NCBI GenBank assembly: GCA_016699995.1
Contig: CP064996.1
Location: forward strand, 837,747 to 901,746
DNA: 64,000 nt
Source: a bacterium
GTDB taxonomy: Bacteria; Patescibacteriota; Doudnabacteria; UBA920
Reading direction: 5' to 3'
The notes below the pieces were generated by a model, which was not told the origin of the DNA, did not search any database, and was given only the letters and a program-made list of their open reading frames with translations. Positions 5,458-52,015 of the stretch are shown here, one piece after another (position 1 is the stretch's first letter; every line of letters begins with the position of its first letter). A program made the position numbers and the translations under genes.

Positions 5458-6258
5458 TTAATCAGAATTAATATATTCTCTCGGATTACTGAGGATCAAG
5501 CCCCCATTGCGAATACCAATATTAAGCGAACCTGCAAGAAGGGAGTTAACCAAAACAAACGCAATTGCAACCAACACTAACCCACCCACTGCTCCTCCCA
5601 GCTTTCTTTTTGCTGCTGTGAGCTTAGATTGGTCGCCGCCGTTGAACTGAGAAATGATGATCTGAACCCCTGAGATAATAATAAATAAAACGGCAACCAA
5701 GCCCGCCATCGTAATAAGGTAATTGATGATAATTACCATTGCTCTAAACAGATGAGTGACATTGCATGGAGTATCTACAGTATTACCGCAAATTACAAAA
5801 CCCGACCGGCCGGATTCATCTACATCTTCTCCGGTGTCTTTATCTAAGTTTCCAGGCGGTGGCGTGCCTTCGCCTCCTTGAGGTTTATCCGGAGCCCGAT
5901 AATTATCTTTTATTGCCTTAATCACCGCGGCGCTTGCGCCGGCATCTGTTAAGGCCTTTTCGTCGGCGGAGGTCGGCTTAAAGTCGACTCCAGACTTGTT
6001 AATTTGCTTGATCAGTTCTGCTGCTGGCGGCTTCTTTTCTTTAACCATAGTCAGGACTTTTGACTTAGTCAAAGCCGTACCTGTGTAAGCCTTGCCGGAA
6101 GCTTCTTGAACTTTTGCACCGCCATCCTGCGCTTGAGCCAGCACGTCGCGCGCTGTTCCGGAAGAAATTATTAAAGCAAAAATTAAACACACCGCGGTTA
6201 ACCCCGCTAGCAGAAAAGGCCCGAAACGGCTCTTTAACTTATCATTAATGTACTTCAT
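5458..6258 (-). CDS. secreted protein with C-terminal TrbC/VirB2-like pilin domain (paralog 7 of 7)
   Basis: ORF; N-terminal TM/signal; C-terminal IIISGVQIIISQFNGGDQSKLTAAKRKLGGAVGGLVLVAIAFVLV. Confidence 0.65.
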   Translation of the reverse strand: MKYINDKLKSRFGPFLLAGLTAVCLIFALIISSGTARDVLAQAQDGGAKVQEASGKAYTGTALTKSKVLTMVKEKKPPAAELIKQINKSGVDFKPTSADEKALTDAGASAAVIKAIKDNYRAPDKPQGGEGTPPPGNLDKDTGEDVDESGRSGFVICGNTVDTPCNVTHLFRAMVIIINYLITMAGLVAVLFIIISGVQIIISQFNGGDQSKLTAAKRKLGGAVGGLVLVAIAFVLVNSLLAGSLNIGIRNGGLILSNPREYINSD

Positions 6259-7568
6259 TAAAATAACCTCCCTTGCACCAAGGCGGACGCCTGGCTCTGA
6301 GCTCGGCTTAAGCTGCTATTAACGCTTTGGTTTTTAAACAGAATATTATTTATAGCTTCTCCTATTAATTCATCAAACTTTTCTTCGCTCACTTTATAAA
6401 AAGATTTAGCAGTAAGGTTTGCATGGGCGAAGACACCGATGTCCAAATCCTGGGTTTGCAGTTCTATCAAATCGCGGCGGGAGGATGGCTGCTTATCTTT
6501 GGCGTAATAGGCATCCAAGGCCTGCTTGCTGGTTGCAAATTTTAAGAAGTCCCAAGCATCTGCACTATTTTTACTTTGCTTGCTGACTACTTCTCCAAAA
6601 TAGCTGGCAAAATTCACGTTGGGTTGAGATAGATCAAACTGTGGTACCGGTGCGACATCATAATTTAAGTTTGGAGCCTTTGCATCAATTTGAGACCTAG
6701 TATAACTATAGCCATACAAAAACGCTGCGCGACCATTGGCAAAAGCATCTACCGAATAATCACTTTCCGAATTCCAGGTATAGTTCTGGCTGGACGGATT
6801 GGCAAACGAAGTATAAAACTCCATAGCTTCCACACCCGGATTAACGCTACGTCCATTACGCTGGACACTAGACGCAAAGCGCGGCGTACGACCGTCATTG
6901 GACCAAGGAACAGTGCCAGACTGGAGCATTAACAGGTACACAATATCCACTCCCCGGTTAACATTGTCATGTGTCCCCATTGCTACACCGCTGCGGTCAA
7001 AGTAGCCCTGAGAATTTTGGCTAGAAATTTTTCTCGAATCACGCGCCAGTTCATCCCAGCTTTTGGGCGGGGTGGCAATACCGGCAGTCCCTAATATATC
7101 CTTGTTGTAGTACAAGGCCAGAGAATCAACCCACATAGCAGTGCCGTAAATTTTATCGGCGCGGATAAAATCTGTACTGACCACGTCAACAAAGCCATCT
7201 CTATACTCTTTCATCGTATAAAGCTTATCCGGCGCTGGGGTAACTTTATCTAAATATTCCGGCAGCCAAGTATTATTGATAGAAAAAATATCCGGACCGG
7301 ATCCGCTCGCTAATGCATTCAGAAGATCGCTTTCGTAGTTTTCGATGTTTTTCTTAGTGTACTCGATCGTAACATTCGGCTTAACTTTTTTGTAGGCCTG
7401 AATAAGTGTATTCATCTTGTCGCTGTCAACAAAAGGCTTCCAGATACGAAGCGTTACCTTGCCTGCCTTCTGATTGCCGCCGCCGCAGCCGGCAGAAACC
7501 AAAACTAAACAACCTATCACCAAGGCGAAGGTAAATTTTTTAAAAACAGAGTTTTGATTTTTTTTCAT
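6258..7568 (-). CDS. ABC transporter substrate-binding lipoprotein (extracellular solute-binding protein, family 1-like)
   Basis: ORF 436 aa; signal peptide with lipobox LVSAGC; general solute-binding-protein-like sequence. Confidence 0.7.
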   Translation of the reverse strand: MKKNQNSVFKKFTFALVIGCLVLVSAGCGGGNQKAGKVTLRIWKPFVDSDKMNTLIQAYKKVKPNVTIEYTKKNIENYESDLLNALASGSGPDIFSINNTWLPEYLDKVTPAPDKLYTMKEYRDGFVDVVSTDFIRADKIYGTAMWVDSLALYYNKDILGTAGIATPPKSWDELARDSRKISSQNSQGYFDRSGVAMGTHDNVNRGVDIVYLLMLQSGTVPWSNDGRTPRFASSVQRNGRSVNPGVEAMEFYTSFANPSSQNYTWNSESDYSVDAFANGRAAFLYGYSYTRSQIDAKAPNLNYDVAPVPQFDLSQPNVNFASYFGEVVSKQSKNSADAWDFLKFATSKQALDAYYAKDKQPSSRRDLIELQTQDLDIGVFAHANLTAKSFYKVSEEKFDELIGEAINNILFKNQSVNSSLSRAQSQASALVQGRLF

Positions 7569-43253: not shown

Positions 43254-44203
43254 TGCAGGAAAATTTCTTACAAGCTAAACAACTAATGGAATCCTCAAAT
43301 CGGATTCTATTTACTACGCACGAACGCACTGACGGTGACGATCTGGGTTCAGTTTTGGCTTTGGCTATAGCGGCCCAAGAAATGGGGAAGCATGTTACCA
43401 TAGCTGTAACCGAAGGCGTACCAAGCCGCTTGAGCTATATGCCGATGTCGGATGAAGTATTGAGCGACATCAACCACACAAACTTCGACCTGCTGATTAT
43501 TTCCGGCTGCTCTCATTTGGGACGGGTTAATAATCCTAATATTCAAAATCTGAAAATTCCAAAAATCAACTTTGACCATCATCCAGATAACCAATTTTAT
43601 GCAGAAGTAAATGTTGTTGATCACACCAAGTCTTCCGTGGCGGAATTGGTGTTTGATTTCTTCAAGTTTTGCGGATGGGAGATCAGCCACGACATTGCAA
43701 CCAACTTGTTAACAGGAATTGTCACAGACACAGGATTGCTAATGCATTCCAACACCCAAGCCAGCACTTTAGAGGCGGCTTCGGAATTAATGAAAAGCGG
43801 CGCGCGCATCAGCCAGGTCAGCAAGCATACATTTAACAACGCTGACCCAATTCAGCTCAAAGCATGGGGACAGGCTTTAACAAATTCTTACTACAATCCC
43901 GACAACCAGGTAATCTATTCTGTAATTACTCAGGACCAACTGCAAAGCTTGGGTAACCCAGAACAAGCCAGTTTCGAAGGTTTGGTGGAAACTCTCAATA
44001 AAGTTCCAGAAGCCAAATACGCAATGTTTCTCAAGGAAGACGGGGATCGTATTAAAGGCAGCCTGCGCAGCGAAGAGTACAAAGGGGTAAACGTGCAGCA
44101 AATCGCCCAAAAACTGGGCGGCGGCGGGCACAAATTGGCAGCCGGATTCTCTATGGTAGGGAAGCTGGCTAAAACACCGGACGGAAAATGGGAGATTATA
44201 TAA
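43253..44203 (+). CDS. nrnA: DHH-family phosphoesterase (NrnA-like nanoRNase/pAp phosphatase)
   Basis: 316 aa; DHH motif region (FDHHPDN), GGGGH near C-terminus. Confidence 0.75.
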   Translation: MQENFLQAKQLMESSNRILFTTHERTDGDDLGSVLALAIAAQEMGKHVTIAVTEGVPSRLSYMPMSDEVLSDINHTNFDLLIISGCSHLGRVNNPNIQNLKIPKINFDHHPDNQFYAEVNVVDHTKSSVAELVFDFFKFCGWEISHDIATNLLTGIVTDTGLLMHSNTQASTLEAASELMKSGARISQVSKHTFNNADPIQLKAWGQALTNSYYNPDNQVIYSVITQDQLQSLGNPEQASFEGLVETLNKVPEAKYAMFLKEDGDRIKGSLRSEEYKGVNVQQIAQKLGGGGHKLAAGFSMVGKLAKTPDGKWEII

Positions 44204-44229
44204 AAAACTTTGCTTATGCAAAGTTTTTT
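44202..44229. terminator. perfect palindromic hairpin between nrnA and tRNA-Leu (bidirectional terminator candidate)
   Basis: AAAAAACTTTGC-TTAT-GCAAAGTTTTTT. Confidence 0.6.
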
Positions 44230-44314
44230 GGTGCGCGGGAGAGGACTCGAACCTCCACGCCCTAGGGGCACTGCCACCTCAAGGCAGCCTGGCTACCAGT
44301 TACAGCACCCGCGC
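44229..44314 (-). tRNA. tRNA-Leu (anticodon GAG)
   Basis: 86 nt; long variable arm; anticodon stem CTGCC/GGCAG, loop UUGAGGU; discriminator A; CCA encoded. Confidence 0.85.
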
Positions 44315-44317
44315 TAG

Positions 44318-45004
44318 TTATAAAGACTCAGAAATTATATCTAATGCTTGTTTAATTTTCAATAGCTTACGAGTCAAACATAAACTACTATTTGAATACA
44401 TTTTTCTTAAAATAACCAAGCTCTCTTTTTTGCCATACCTTAATTGATAAACAGAAGAGTTCTTATTTTTACTAATGTGACCAGAGACTCTATATTTTAA
44501 ACTGTTTTGTACCCGTAACCAGTTAATATGATTTTCGCTAGCCGACATAAAAACTAAATAAAACAGAAAACTGGAAGGCCATCTTTTATCTTTGTAAGAA
44601 TAAAAGGTTCCGTCTCCATCAAAATGACCCCTCAAAAAGTCATCATAATATCGTTTTGGAATTTTGACTTCTGCTATAACTTTTGACTTACTAGGCATCA
44701 AGCCGATAGATAGTAAAAACTTATAAAGATTTATACTACCAAACTGTAAAAAGTAGCAGGTGGTTTTAGGTTCTGCACCTCGGATTTTGAGAGATATTTT
44801 ATTGGTTAAGTTAAGAGTATTTTTAACTATATTGACTAACTCTATATCCTTAGACGTAAAATTAATATGCCTACCATCCTTGGAAAGATTTCCATCAGTA
44901 ACGATTAACCCAATAACATAAGCAAAATCAGGGGACCATACAATTTTTTCAAAATGATTAGTGCTCATATCGATATCATACCTCAAGGCGTTAGCGTATA
45001 CCAA
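44318..45004 (-). CDS. LAGLIDADG-family homing endonuclease (two-motif, free-standing)
   Basis: Motif 1 VIGLIVTDGNLSKDG and motif 2 FLRGHFDGDGTF; stop 4 nt from tRNA-Leu 5' end. Confidence 0.75.
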   Translation of the reverse strand: MVYANALRYDIDMSTNHFEKIVWSPDFAYVIGLIVTDGNLSKDGRHINFTSKDIELVNIVKNTLNLTNKISLKIRGAEPKTTCYFLQFGSINLYKFLLSIGLMPSKSKVIAEVKIPKRYYDDFLRGHFDGDGTFYSYKDKRWPSSFLFYLVFMSASENHINWLRVQNSLKYRVSGHISKNKNSSVYQLRYGKKESLVILRKMYSNSSLCLTRKLLKIKQALDIISESL

Positions 45005-45069
45005 TATATATCAATAACCTCTTGCAAAAATATACCTAATTCTATATAATCATTAAGTTAGCAAATTTA

Positions 45070-45146
45070 GGGCGATTAGCTCAGTTGGTTAGAGCGTCTC
45101 GTTTACACCGAGAAGGCCAAAGGTTCGAATCCTTTATCGCCCACCA
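45070..45146 (+). tRNA. tRNA-Val (anticodon UAC)
   Basis: 77 nt; anticodon stem TCTCG/CGAGA, loop UUUACAC; T-loop GGTTCGAATCC; CCA encoded. Confidence 0.9.
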
Positions 45147-45162
45147 TGCGAAAATTTAATAT

Positions 45163-45448
45163 GCCCTGGTAGCTCAGTGGTAGAGCAGACGCCTGAATCT
45201 TCGGGCCATGCGAGAGTAATTTTGCAATGCAAATCGGGTGAACTCGGGGAACATCTAAATACATTTAGACAATCCCGAGCCAAGCCAAGAACGGGTTAAT
45301 ACTTCTTGGAAGGTGTAGAGACTAGTAGGTGAGCCCAACAATAATCCTACGGATAGCGCCCGACTTCCTTTCCAAAGGAAGATGATATAGTCCAAAATGA
45401 CGCAGGAAGAGCGTCGTGTCGTCAGTTCAATTCTGACCCGGGGCACCA
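45163..45448 (+). tRNA. tRNA-Phe (anticodon GAA) interrupted by a 211-nt group I intron in the anticodon loop
   Basis: 5' exon GCCCTGGTAGCTCAGTGGTAGAGCAGACGCCU; 3' exon GAAGAGCGTCGTGTCGTCAGTTCAATTCTGACCCGGGGCACCA; exons join to a canonical tRNA. Confidence 0.8.
45195..45405 (+). ncRNA. group I self-splicing intron (tRNA-type, IC3-like)
   Basis: Core elements GGTGTAGAGACTAG and GATGATATAGTCC (P7 strands GACUA/UAGUC), GAGCCAAGCC; guide sequence UCUUCGGGC pairs with both exon ends; terminal G precedes 3' exon. Confidence 0.75.
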
Positions 45449-45524
45449 TTAAAAAACAGTGAAATTTTCACTGTTTTTTAATACATAAGTTTTCGTACCG
45501 CTGTGCTATACTTTAAGCATACCC

Positions 45525-46214
45525 ATGAGAAACGATAAAGAAAAGGCACTGAAACTAAGGTTAACAGGAAAAAGCTACACAGAAATAGCTCAAGTTTTAA
45601 AAATTCCCAAAAGCACCCTTTCTACTTGGTTTAAAAACTTGCAATTGTCTAAAATTGCCTCCGATAGGCTAAATGACAAAACCAAGAAGGGGGCCTTAAA
45701 AGGATTGCTCAAAAGAAATGCATTACAAACTAAGCTAGCGCATGCAAAAGCAAAAAAAATCAGATCAGCAGCCATGCTAGAAATAGGAAGACTATCTAAC
45801 AGAGAACTGTTATTGATTGGCGCAGCCTTATATTGGGGTGAGGGTCATAAACGAGCCATTATGAAGAATGGAGTTGCCCGCTCTTACCATCCTGTTAGCC
45901 TATCTAATTCCGATCCGAAACTCGTTGCTATTTTTCTCGAATTTTTAAGAAAAGTTTGCAAGATAGAAGAAAATAGACTAAAAGCTGGCCTAAGAATTTA
46001 TCAACATCAAAATCCTGAGCAGCTCTTGCAATTTTGGTCAAAATTGACTAAAATTCCTAAAGAACGTTTCGAAAAGTTCTACTATGGCGTGAGTAAATCC
46101 ACTCTAAATAAAAGGCCTTACAATGTGCTGCCTTACGGGACAATTCAGGTCAGGATAGGCGACACAGCAACTTTCCATAAGATTATGGGTTGGATAGAGG
46201 GGATTGCAAATTAA
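45525..46214 (+). CDS. HTH-domain protein, possible single-motif LAGLIDADG-like endonuclease
   Basis: 229 aa; N-terminal HTH LTGKSYTEIAQVLKIPKSTLSTWF; LLLIGAALYWGEGHK weakly resembles a LAGLIDADG motif; sits between intron-containing tRNA-Phe and tRNA-Gly. Confidence 0.4.
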   Translation: MRNDKEKALKLRLTGKSYTEIAQVLKIPKSTLSTWFKNLQLSKIASDRLNDKTKKGALKGLLKRNALQTKLAHAKAKKIRSAAMLEIGRLSNRELLLIGAALYWGEGHKRAIMKNGVARSYHPVSLSNSDPKLVAIFLEFLRKVCKIEENRLKAGLRIYQHQNPEQLLQFWSKLTKIPKERFEKFYYGVSKSTLNKRPYNVLPYGTIQVRIGDTATFHKIMGWIEGIAN

Positions 46215-46220
46215 ATACGT

Positions 46221-46294
46221 GCGGCTATGGTTCAATGGTAGAACTCTTCCTTGCCAAGGAAGGGATACGGGTTCGATTCCCGTTAGCCGCTCCA
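46221..46294 (+). tRNA. tRNA-Gly (anticodon GCC)
   Basis: 74 nt; anticodon stem CTTCC/GGAAG, loop UUGCCAA; discriminator U; CCA encoded. Confidence 0.9.
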
Positions 46295-46361
46295 CCAAAA
46301 AACTCTCCCTAAAGGGGAGTTTTTTGTTATATAATATAGATAACATTATTAACTTAATAAA

Positions 46362-50332: not shown

Positions 50333-50407
50333 GGTGCGGTGGCGAAGTGGTAACGCTGGGGTCTGCAAAACCTCGATGCGCGGGTTCGATTCCCGCCCGC
50401 ACCTCCA
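50333..50407 (+). tRNA. tRNA-Cys (anticodon GCA)
   Basis: 75 nt; anticodon loop CUGCAAA; T-loop GGTTCGATTCC; discriminator U; CCA encoded. Confidence 0.85.
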
Positions 50408-51941: not shown

Positions 51942-52015
51942 GGGGCGGGTCCCTGGTTGGGCAGGATAGACTCGTCACCCTATCCCAGCGGGTTCGATTC
52001 CCGTCCGCTCCACCA
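51942..52015 (+). ncRNA. tRNA-like element with canonical acceptor stem (G3:U70), T-arm and CCA but non-canonical anticodon arm
   Basis: 74 nt; GGGGCGG..GCGGGTTCGATTCCCGT CCGCTCC A CCA; central region folds as 4-6 bp stem with 10-nt loop; partial inverted copy at about 52057..52080. Confidence 0.4.

Follow-up and report, generated by a model that had tools for sequence, protein, structure and literature searches.

Introduction

In collaborative (trans) homing, known from phages, a free-standing endonuclease gene adjoins a gene whose group I intron has no ORF or a defective endonuclease, as described for F-CphI and the psbA intron of cyanophage S-PM2 and for MobE and the nrdB/I-TevIII intron of T4 (PMC3984707; PMC2790892). 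Free-standing endonucleases can also undergo intronless homing, as SegF does, and SegB in the tRNA gene cluster of T4 (PMC2330249). LAGLIDADG enzymes are further known from rRNA insertions in candidate phyla radiation (CPR) bacteria (Tsurumaki et al. 2024, cited in PMC13011429). Here we describe two open reading frames (ORFs), ORF1 and ORF2, which lie among tRNA genes in a 64,000-nt stretch of a Patescibacteria chromosome (GCA_016699995.1, contig CP064996.1; hereafter the window), close to a tRNA-Phe(GAA) gene that is split by a group I intron without an ORF. Our preferred reading, to which we assign a probability of roughly 55%, is that both genes encode free-standing homing endonucleases for which tRNA genes serve as homing sites, with ORF2 paired with the intron.

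ORF2 and tRNA-Phe resemble the collaborative systems in several respects: a free-standing endonuclease-like gene stands beside a gene whose group I intron has no ORF (or, in phages, may have a defective endonuclease), the two largely occur together, with the exceptions given below, and the proposed target is the intron insertion site. They differ in that the host is a cellular bacterium rather than a phage and the interrupted gene encodes a tRNA rather than a protein. Moreover, ORF2 joins a helix-turn-helix (HTH) to a LAGLIDADG-like domain with presumed cleavage activity, whereas the phage enzymes are Endo VII-like or HNH, and it occurs in three arrangements around its tRNA. ORF1 is more like SegB and SegF, being an endonuclease gene between conserved genes of a tRNA cluster, expected to cleave genomes that lack it and then to be co-converted with its flanks. 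SegB, however, is a phage GIY-YIG enzyme, whereas ORF1 encodes a LAGLIDADG protein in a bacterial chromosome and is fixed to one tRNA isotype, with a relic copy of the tRNA 5' half as its putative promoter region. With I-Tsp061I, I-DmoI and the CPR rRNA-insertion enzymes, ORF1 shares the fold, the two motifs with catalytic Asp and a length of about 200 amino acids (aa), but it lies in neither an intron nor an intein and instead abuts a tRNA gene. Fungal mitochondrial mobile ORFs, e.g. that of atp6 in Allomyces, invade a gene and supply a new copy of the gene end that they displace. At ORF1, too, part of the presumed target gene is present twice, once intact and once as a relic beside the ORF; the difference is that this relic is a tRNA 5' half, which many lineages have retained as a promoter-like element. 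WhiA, a transcription factor derived from a LAGLIDADG protein, has two LAGLIDADG domains, a C-terminal HTH and no catalytic acidic residues. We considered ORF2 as a factor of this type and rejected the assignment, as it has a single LAGLIDADG-like core domain, its HTH is N-terminal and the catalytic position holds an invariant Glu.

The intron itself is already published. A 2026 survey lists a Phe(GAA) intron between positions 33 and 34 for GCA_016699995.1 and reports it in 1/95 complete Patescibacteria genomes; it sought endonuclease genes only inside introns and concluded that most introns lack them and that there seems to be little horizontal transfer (PMC13011429). Self-splicing in vitro without protein was shown there for Asn and Asp introns of the phylum, not for the Phe intron. 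The class of mechanism is likewise known, from phages and organelles. Our literature search found no report of free-standing LAGLIDADG-type genes tied to specific tRNA genes in Patescibacteria, nor of the tRNA-Leu relic promoter or the ORF2 family.

ORF2 is tied to tRNA-Phe(GAA) and its intron

In the window, ORF2 lies between the intron-containing tRNA-Phe gene and tRNA-Gly, in agreement with an earlier prediction made from the sequence alone (the original prediction). Relatives of ORF2 with 45-67% identity were fetched from 80 metagenome loci, 79 of which were informative. Split tRNA-Phe genes in these loci were located by nhmmer coordinates; a strict regular expression missed most of them. 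A tRNA-Phe(GAA) gene lies within 292 nt of ORF2 in 79/79 informative loci, and in 73/79 it carries the 33/34 intron, so that the window and these 73 loci have in common a free-standing, endonuclease-like ORF2 adjoining a gene whose group I intron lacks an ORF. The relative position of the two varies across the 73 intron loci, with the tRNA upstream on the same strand in 20, upstream and divergent in 21, and downstream on the same strand in 32 (mostly 14-55 nt away). The arrangement is shared with the nearest neighbour in 45 of 52 cases, with several changes over time, and the identity matrices of ORF2 and of tRNA plus intron correlate weakly (r = 0.25; Mantel 0/1000). With ORF2 free-standing in three arrangements, and with distant relatives beside intron-less tRNAs (see below), there is no sign that an intron and its endonuclease gene had become separated, as the original prediction suggested.

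The intron belongs to group I (Rfam RF00028, 56.9 bits against a gathering score of 50). It is inserted between U33 and G34, with the 5' exon ending in U and the intron ending in G (CCU/GAA...CAG/GAAGAG, slashes marking the junctions), and exon GCCU could pair with intron GGGC to form the P1 helix. As had been predicted, its 211 nt contain no ORF of note. The insertion site and the terminal G are constant in 29/29 homologous introns parsed. In the comparison with intron-less tRNA-Phe genes of relatives, proposed alongside the original prediction, the joined exons of the window are identical to the intron-less tRNA-Phe of its closest relative (locus L001), which has no ORF2.

As DNA, the anticodon arm of tRNA-Phe is a palindrome (e.g. 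GACGC-CTGAAGA-GCGTC) centred on A35, 1-2 nt from the intron insertion site, and would be the kind of site used by a dimeric single-domain LAGLIDADG enzyme. Within this arm, the pair 31:39 is T:A instead of C:G in 3/4 distinct intron-less tRNA-Phe alleles adjoining ORF2 vs 1/35 others, and C:G is present in 29/29 intron-bearing alleles and in 5/6 intron-less alleles without ORF2 (Fisher about 0.002, the samples not being independent). Shielding of the host copy, whether through the intron or through an altered site, would be compatible with this pattern.

ORF2 is a probable single-domain LAGLIDADG-like endonuclease

An N-terminal HTH and a weak single LAGLIDADG-like motif had been predicted for ORF2, and both were recovered: HTH_23 matches residues 7-39, and the motif LLLIGAALYWGEGHK is present. 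Outside the HTH, there is no Pfam, NCBIfam or PDB sequence match. The AlphaFold model (predicted local distance difference test, pLDDT, 86.6) shows the HTH, a 45-residue helix and a C-terminal alpha/beta domain, the first helix of which (92-105) ends in LYWGEG; the corresponding motif LYW[GA]EGxK is invariant. Conservation extends to G99, L102, Y103, W104, E106, G107, K109, N128, D130, W171, G205 and G222, which are invariant or nearly so even when 103 diverse relatives are included, E106 being retained in 101/103 of these and G107 in 102/103. The motif is kept in 80/80 fetched homologues, and an in-frame stop occurs in only one of them. An exhaustive profile search returned 5,296 clusters at E<=1e-3, so that ORF2, judged by sequence, belongs to a large and unnamed family. 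Together with an hhalign alignment to ORF1 at P=0.03, described below, these features lead us to regard the core domain as LAGLIDADG-like with moderate confidence and ORF2 as a probable single-domain LAGLIDADG-like endonuclease.

Some members of the superfamily are called as proteins of 424-576 aa with two to three matched stretches. Fused two-copy relatives were considered as evidence of dimerisation but could not be verified: the 576-aa example (L174 1497-3227) overlaps tRNA-Gln(UUG) on the opposite strand and may have been called too long.

Most ORF2 homologues are preceded by a conserved extended -10-like box, TGCTATACT, which lies 8-12 nt from the ATG. As the distance is 12 nt in the window, the mRNA leader of ORF2 may be very short or absent. 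In many homologues (e.g. those of L122, L136, L138, L143, L156 and L158), one or two TTATCCACA-like boxes, which correspond to the DnaA-box consensus, and palindromes flank the -10 box about 30-70 nt before the ATG; they may serve as an operator for the ORF2 HTH.

ORF1 is a two-motif LAGLIDADG protein inserted beside tRNA-Leu(GAG)

The ORF called at 44318..45004 on the minus strand contains both LAGLIDADG motifs of the original prediction, LIVTDGNLSKDG and LRGHFDGDGTF, in its translation. Its likely start is the ATG at 44968 (216 aa), which agrees with the NCBI gene call and with homologues, as these begin at MKP..KVKIKWSP; the first 12 codons of the longer call are non-coding. ORF1 matches Pfam PF14528 (LAGLIDADG_3) in two stretches with 38.8 bits against a cutoff of 22.5, and among PDB sequences it matches the archaeal intron endonuclease I-Tsp061I best (2dch, E=1e-3). 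Each motif, GLIVTDG (D37) and LRGHFDGDG (D131), has an acidic residue at motif position 8. Across 42 homologues, D37-G38 and D129-G130-D131-G132 do not vary. Both catalytic Asp are thus conserved, and ORF1 is not the degenerate remnant that had been allowed for. The alignment-based AlphaFold2 (AF2) model (pLDDT 87.7; predicted template modelling score, pTM, 0.85) has two alpha-beta-beta-alpha-beta-beta-alpha repeats. A Foldseek search with this model gave 124 PDB matches at E<=1e-3, led by LAGLIDADG proteins, with I-Tsp061I first (E=6e-11), followed by I-AniI, bI3 maturase, I-DmoI, I-SceI and others. By sequence and model, ORF1 is thus a bona fide two-motif LAGLIDADG protein whose catalytic residues are intact, and it would act as a monomer.

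Scanning GTDB species genomes yielded 553 relatives of ORF1, of which the best 80 loci were fetched and analysed. tRNA-Leu(GAG), on the same strand, starts -21 to +19 nt from the ORF1 stop in 69/80 loci, and tRNA-Leu(AAG) takes the same position in one more (70/80, or 70/74 informative loci); six of the 80 end too early to judge, and four are without such a downstream tRNA. In the window, the gap is 3 nt, not 4 nt as first read. The constant partner of ORF1 is tRNA-Leu(GAG), not the intron-bearing tRNA-Phe. The idea in the original prediction that the endonucleases target tRNA genes or intron-less alleles therefore fits ORF2, with its tight linkage to tRNA-Phe(GAA) and the intron, but not ORF1 in so far as tRNA-Phe was meant.

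The gene rplS lies directly upstream of ORF1 in 62/81 loci. In nine of the loci that were fetched for ORF2, tRNA-Leu(GAG) comes after rplS with neither ORF1 nor relic, and in two the site is occupied. These occupied and empty loci identify ORF1 as an insertion that is polymorphic for its presence at a single fixed site. The ORF1 module is inverted in the window and in its closest relative (L001/L013), where it lies between a DHH phosphoesterase gene and tRNA-Val; the next relative, L008, has a lone tRNA-Leu(GAG) at that site in opposite orientation. In L008 (2296-2500), the last 28 nt of tRNA-Leu(GAG) recur about 180 nt downstream of the gene, which may be what an earlier insertion or excision left behind.

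Upstream of the ORF1 start, a 30-nt motif (consensus TTGGTATACGCTATTACCTTGAGGTATAAT, <=6 changes) is found in 59/75 loci, including the window (Table 1). When its profile was compared with 298 distinct tRNAs from all loci, it matched 52/89 tRNA-Leu(GAG) genes between tRNA positions 17 and 39. Beyond these, a few further Leu tRNAs were matched in the D-arm only, with next to nothing from other isotypes. We used this profile in place of an nhmmer tRNA-Leu profile, which is too insensitive for about 25 nt and was significant only for L025 (E=0.0012). The relics of L025, L074 and L109 also retain the acceptor and D stems. The motif begins with TTGGTA and, after an 18-nt spacer, ends in a TATAAT box (TATGAT in the window), and a promoter scan lists the window copy; the relic of the tRNA-Leu 5' half thus looks like the promoter of ORF1. 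No relic motif was found at the empty rplS-tRNA-Leu sites. The relics are more alike among themselves than to the local tRNA D-arms, which indicates that they travel with the cassette; we accordingly rejected the possibility that they are re-made from the host tRNA at each homing event. A location of ORF1 inside an intron of tRNA-Leu was also rejected, given that a complete tRNA-Leu follows ORF1 and most relics lack the acceptor stem. An anticodon stem CTACC/GGTAG is present in about 7/14 ORF1-linked vs about 5/73 ORF1-less tRNA-Leu genes, a suggestive contrast that is confounded by phylogeny and was not used as evidence.

ORF1 and the ORF2-intron pair form a mosaic among close relatives

Comparison with close relatives, whose housekeeping proteins are 69-88% identical to those of the window, showed that the window has ORF1, ORF2 and the intron, whereas L001 has ORF1 only and L008 has ORF2 and the intron without ORF1. 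In L001, the intron-less tRNA-Phe is separated from tRNA-Gly by 23 nt, with no ORF2 between them. Identities between the window and L001 are 75% for DHH, 80% for RbfA, 88% for IF-2 and 66% for ORF1; between the window and L008, they are 70% for DHH, 69% for RbfA and 71% for ORF2. This mosaic shows that ORF1 and ORF2 with its intron are gained or lost independently among near relatives, while intron and ORF2 are co-present or co-absent throughout the trio.

A homing mechanism and its alternatives

We propose that each gene is a selfish DNA-cutting gene that settled in the tRNA cluster with one tRNA gene as its homing site. The ORF1 cassette would consist of the relic tRNA-Leu 5' half plus ORF1, placed directly upstream of tRNA-Leu(GAG), mostly between rplS and the tRNA. 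Its founding event may have duplicated the tRNA-Leu 5' half around ORF1, and the displaced half would have been retained because it drives ORF1 and, through ORF1, the abutting tRNA, both being carried on one transcript that runs from the relic promoter to the hairpin after the tRNA. The ORF1 enzyme would cut in or beside tRNA-Leu(GAG) of genomes without the cassette, and repair templated by the cassette-bearing copy, with homology provided by rplS and the tRNA, would then introduce the cassette (intronless homing). ORF2, probably as a dimer, would cut intron-less tRNA-Phe(GAA) around the anticodon stem-loop palindrome. The host copy would be protected because the 33/34 intron splits the ORF2 site, and cut alleles would receive the intron together with ORF2 by co-conversion (collaborative or trans homing). 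ORF2 would have its own near-leaderless promoter, with the tRNA-Gly 6 nt downstream probably on its transcript.

Several observations argue for this mechanism. Catalytic residues appear intact in both families, and each family keeps to a single, highly conserved tRNA gene. Fixed sites come in occupied and empty forms, close relatives differ in which of the genes they carry, and the intron that accompanies ORF2 has no ORF and interrupts a palindrome at its centre. The resulting pattern of intron and endonuclease gene is comparable to the intronless and collaborative homing of phages (PMC3984707; PMC2330249). A number of points weigh in the other direction. Cleavage, target sites, co-transcription and homing are, for both proteins, what we infer from the protein families, conserved residues, linkage, presence/absence, relic and intron that we observe. 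The fold assignment of ORF2 is weak: ORF2 itself has no LAGLIDADG Pfam match above threshold, a PDB profile search finds none, and Foldseek with its model gives no significant PDB match and no LAGLIDADG match. LAGLIDADG_3 appears only below threshold, with E=0.14 in 2/42 family members and E=0.027 and 0.082 in two longer relatives, and hhalign places E106-G107 of ORF2 on D37-G38 of ORF1 with P=0.03 and a probability below 1%. Intron and ORF2 also part company in some loci. Six ORF2 loci have an intron-less tRNA-Phe, one of which (L166) has the common C:G pair, and L019 (3845-4126) has an intron-bearing tRNA-Phe between tRNA-Val and tRNA-Gly without an ORF2 homologue in the 5.7-kb locus. In addition, distant, full-length ORF2 relatives (28-33% identity; L048 340-975, L035 47-694, L083 4184-4840 and L017 3601-4239) lie 6-19 nt upstream of intron-less tRNA-Ile(UAU), tRNA-Val(GAC) (twice) and tRNA-Phe(GAA), so an intron is unnecessary for an ORF2-type tRNA association. 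The 31:39 pattern could instead stem from the intron's need for exon CCU in P1. As to ORF1, it is conserved to the same degree as ribosomal protein L19 next to it (60% vs 54% mean pairwise identity, the former biased upward by taking the best 80 of 553 matches), and the distances of the two correlate weakly but significantly (r = 0.32; Mantel 0/2000). Long vertical inheritance under purifying selection would fit a domesticated function as well. Finally, the tRNA-Leu beside ORF1 is intact, which would leave the host copy with no evident protection should the target be within the tRNA.

Domestication is the main rival, although we think it rather unlikely. Under it, both proteins would be DNA-binding factors, either host regulators of their own tRNA operons (cf. 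WhiA) or genes kept only because an essential tRNA needs their promoter. Beyond the conservation of ORF1 and its partial phylogenetic congruence with L19, this would account for the rplS-ORF1-tRNA-Leu synteny, for the HTH of ORF2 and the palindromes or repeated boxes around the promoter in many homologues, and for the intactness of 79/80 ORF2 homologues; the placement of both genes 3-6 nt upstream of a tRNA without an obvious separate promoter, and that of the distant ORF2 relatives before intron-less tRNAs, would follow too. WhiA and pure maturases, however, have lost the catalytic acidic residues, which are invariant in both families here. Both genes also appear dispensable, as close relatives differ in their presence and empty sites are common, and a regulator of tRNA-Phe would not be expected to track the intron in 92% of loci. 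A role of ORF2 as a maturase or splicing cofactor, binding the group I intron RNA in pre-tRNA-Phe and aiding its folding as bI3 or I-AniI do, is a second rival, which we consider improbable. It could draw on the intron in 73/79 ORF2 loci, on the joint gain or loss of intron and ORF2 between the window and L001, and on the presence of bI3 and I-AniI among the structural neighbours of ORF1, maturases being part of the candidate fold family. The small tRNA group I introns of the phylum nevertheless self-splice without protein in vitro, as shown for Asn and Asp, not Phe (PMC13011429). Intact ORF2 also stands beside an intron-less tRNA-Phe in six loci, its relatives accompany other intron-less tRNAs, and L019 keeps the intron without it, while the N-terminal HTH and promoter-flanking repeats point to DNA binding. 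The least favoured alternative, with very little probability in our view, takes both ORFs as neutral leftovers, i.e. inactive remnants of old insertions in insertion-tolerant, tRNA-rich intergenic regions. tRNA clusters are indeed known landing zones for mobile DNA, but such remnants would hardly leave hundreds of intact homologues (45-72% identity) with invariant motif residues, conserved promoter-like motifs upstream, and one tRNA isotype per family (70/74 informative loci for ORF1, 79/79 for ORF2).

If the homing mechanism is correct, it bears on how introns spread in this phylum. The 73/79 pairing suggests that the mobility partner of the Phe 33/34 intron sits beside it and not within it, and the published survey looked only inside introns (PMC13011429). 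Collaborative homing, so far known from phages, would then extend to cellular genomes and to tRNA genes, would go some way towards accounting for the many introns in the reduced Patescibacteria genomes, and would give a testable picture of how endonuclease genes and introns join. The ORF2 family, with a core domain that has no Pfam model, would be a possible source of new sequence-specific nucleases, and the ORF1 cassette an intron-free route into an essential tRNA locus, by partial tRNA duplication with the relic reused as promoter. A broader and distinctly tentative generalisation is that ORF2 represents a large undescribed HTH-LAGLIDADG-like endonuclease family (about 5,300 clusters at 50% identity), each Patescibacteria subfamily of which is dedicated to one tRNA gene; this would explain the richness of the phylum in tRNA introns without internal endonuclease genes, while ORF1-type cassettes would invade tRNA genes via a replacement 5' half, the displaced half becoming the promoter.

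Gene layout and additional observations

The features of the region are listed in Table 1. In the window, each ORF is followed within 3-6 nt by a tRNA gene and then by a hairpin with a T-run. This layout suggests that ORF1 and tRNA-Leu, and likewise ORF2 and tRNA-Gly(GCC), share a transcript, the tRNA depending on the promoter of the ORF; co-transcription of ORF2 with tRNA-Gly is probable. The hairpin after tRNA-Leu is the probable terminator of the ORF1-tRNA-Leu unit, although a consensus terminator scan did not flag it, its stem being poor in G-C pairs. Equivalents of the hairpin and T-run after tRNA-Phe are present in L008, L009 and L011. No paralogue of ORF1 or ORF2 was found elsewhere in the window. 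The arrangement of ORF and tRNA recurs in dozens of independent genomes and is thus not due to chance.

Table 1. Features of the 44.2-46.3 kb region, with positions in the window
Feature	Position	Strand	Basis
A/T-rich hairpin then T-run, directly 3' of tRNA-Leu(GAG)	44199..44228	-	Read from sequence
tRNA-Leu(GAG), intact	44229..44314	-	ARAGORN; Rfam tRNA 43.9 bits with permissive filters
ORF1, candidate free-standing double-motif LAGLIDADG endonuclease gene, 216 aa	44318..44968	-	Pfam, homologues, AF2 model, Foldseek
Relic of tRNA-Leu(GAG) 5' half (D-loop to anticodon loop) plus -10-like box, TTGGTATACGCTAACGCCTTGAGGTATGAT	44975..45004	-	Motif profile, promoter scan
tRNA-Val(UAC), first gene of plus-strand tRNA cluster	45070..45146	+	ARAGORN; Rfam 76.1 bits
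tRNA-Phe(GAA) 5' exon, last base U33	45163..45194	+	Read from sequence
Group I intron, 211 nt, ORF-less, between positions 33 and 34	45195..45405	+	Rfam RF00028
tRNA-Phe(GAA) 3' exon, begins with anticodon GAA, CCA encoded	45406..45448	+	Read from sequence
Hairpin plus T-run 3' of tRNA-Phe, terminator-like, separates tRNA-Phe from ORF2	45451..45480	+	Read from sequence
TGCTATACT, extended -10-like box, 12 nt before ORF2 ATG	45504..45512	+	Conserved upstream of most ORF2 homologues
ORF2: N-terminal HTH (7-39), long helix (43-87), C-terminal alpha/beta domain	45525..46214	+	
tRNA-Gly(GCC), 6 nt after ORF2 stop	46221..46294	+	ARAGORN, Rfam
Intrinsic-terminator-like hairpin then T-run, 3' of tRNA-Gly	46305..46325	+	Terminator scan

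The tRNA-Leu(GAG) of the window and that of L001 (4662-4748) are variants with a D-stem CTG/CAG. The window gene was missed by a gathering-mode Rfam scan of the whole window and recovered at the score in Table 1 once the filters were permissive, a filter artefact that is relevant to tRNA censuses.

Endonuclease-type genes directly upstream of tRNA genes seem to be general in the phylum, given the distant ORF2 relatives and a further LAGLIDADG_3 ORF of L008. The latter (5775-6488, 237 aa) is a third two-motif gene, whose stop codon lies inside tRNA-Cys(GCA) (6471-6547); unlike L008, the window has no such LAGLIDADG ORF upstream of its tRNA-Cys (50333-50407). Relics of the cognate tRNA, as for ORF1, were looked for upstream of the distant ORF2 relatives in L017, L035, L048 and L083 and rejected, the local alignments not exceeding those of shuffled sequences. 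Elsewhere in the window, at 51942-52015 on the plus strand, ARAGORN reports a 'tRNA-???' with the four-base anticodon cgtc, for which Rfam gives no match at the gathering threshold; it resembles a tRNA-Asp(GUC) with an oversized anticodon loop, GGATAG-ACTCGTCACC-CTATCC.

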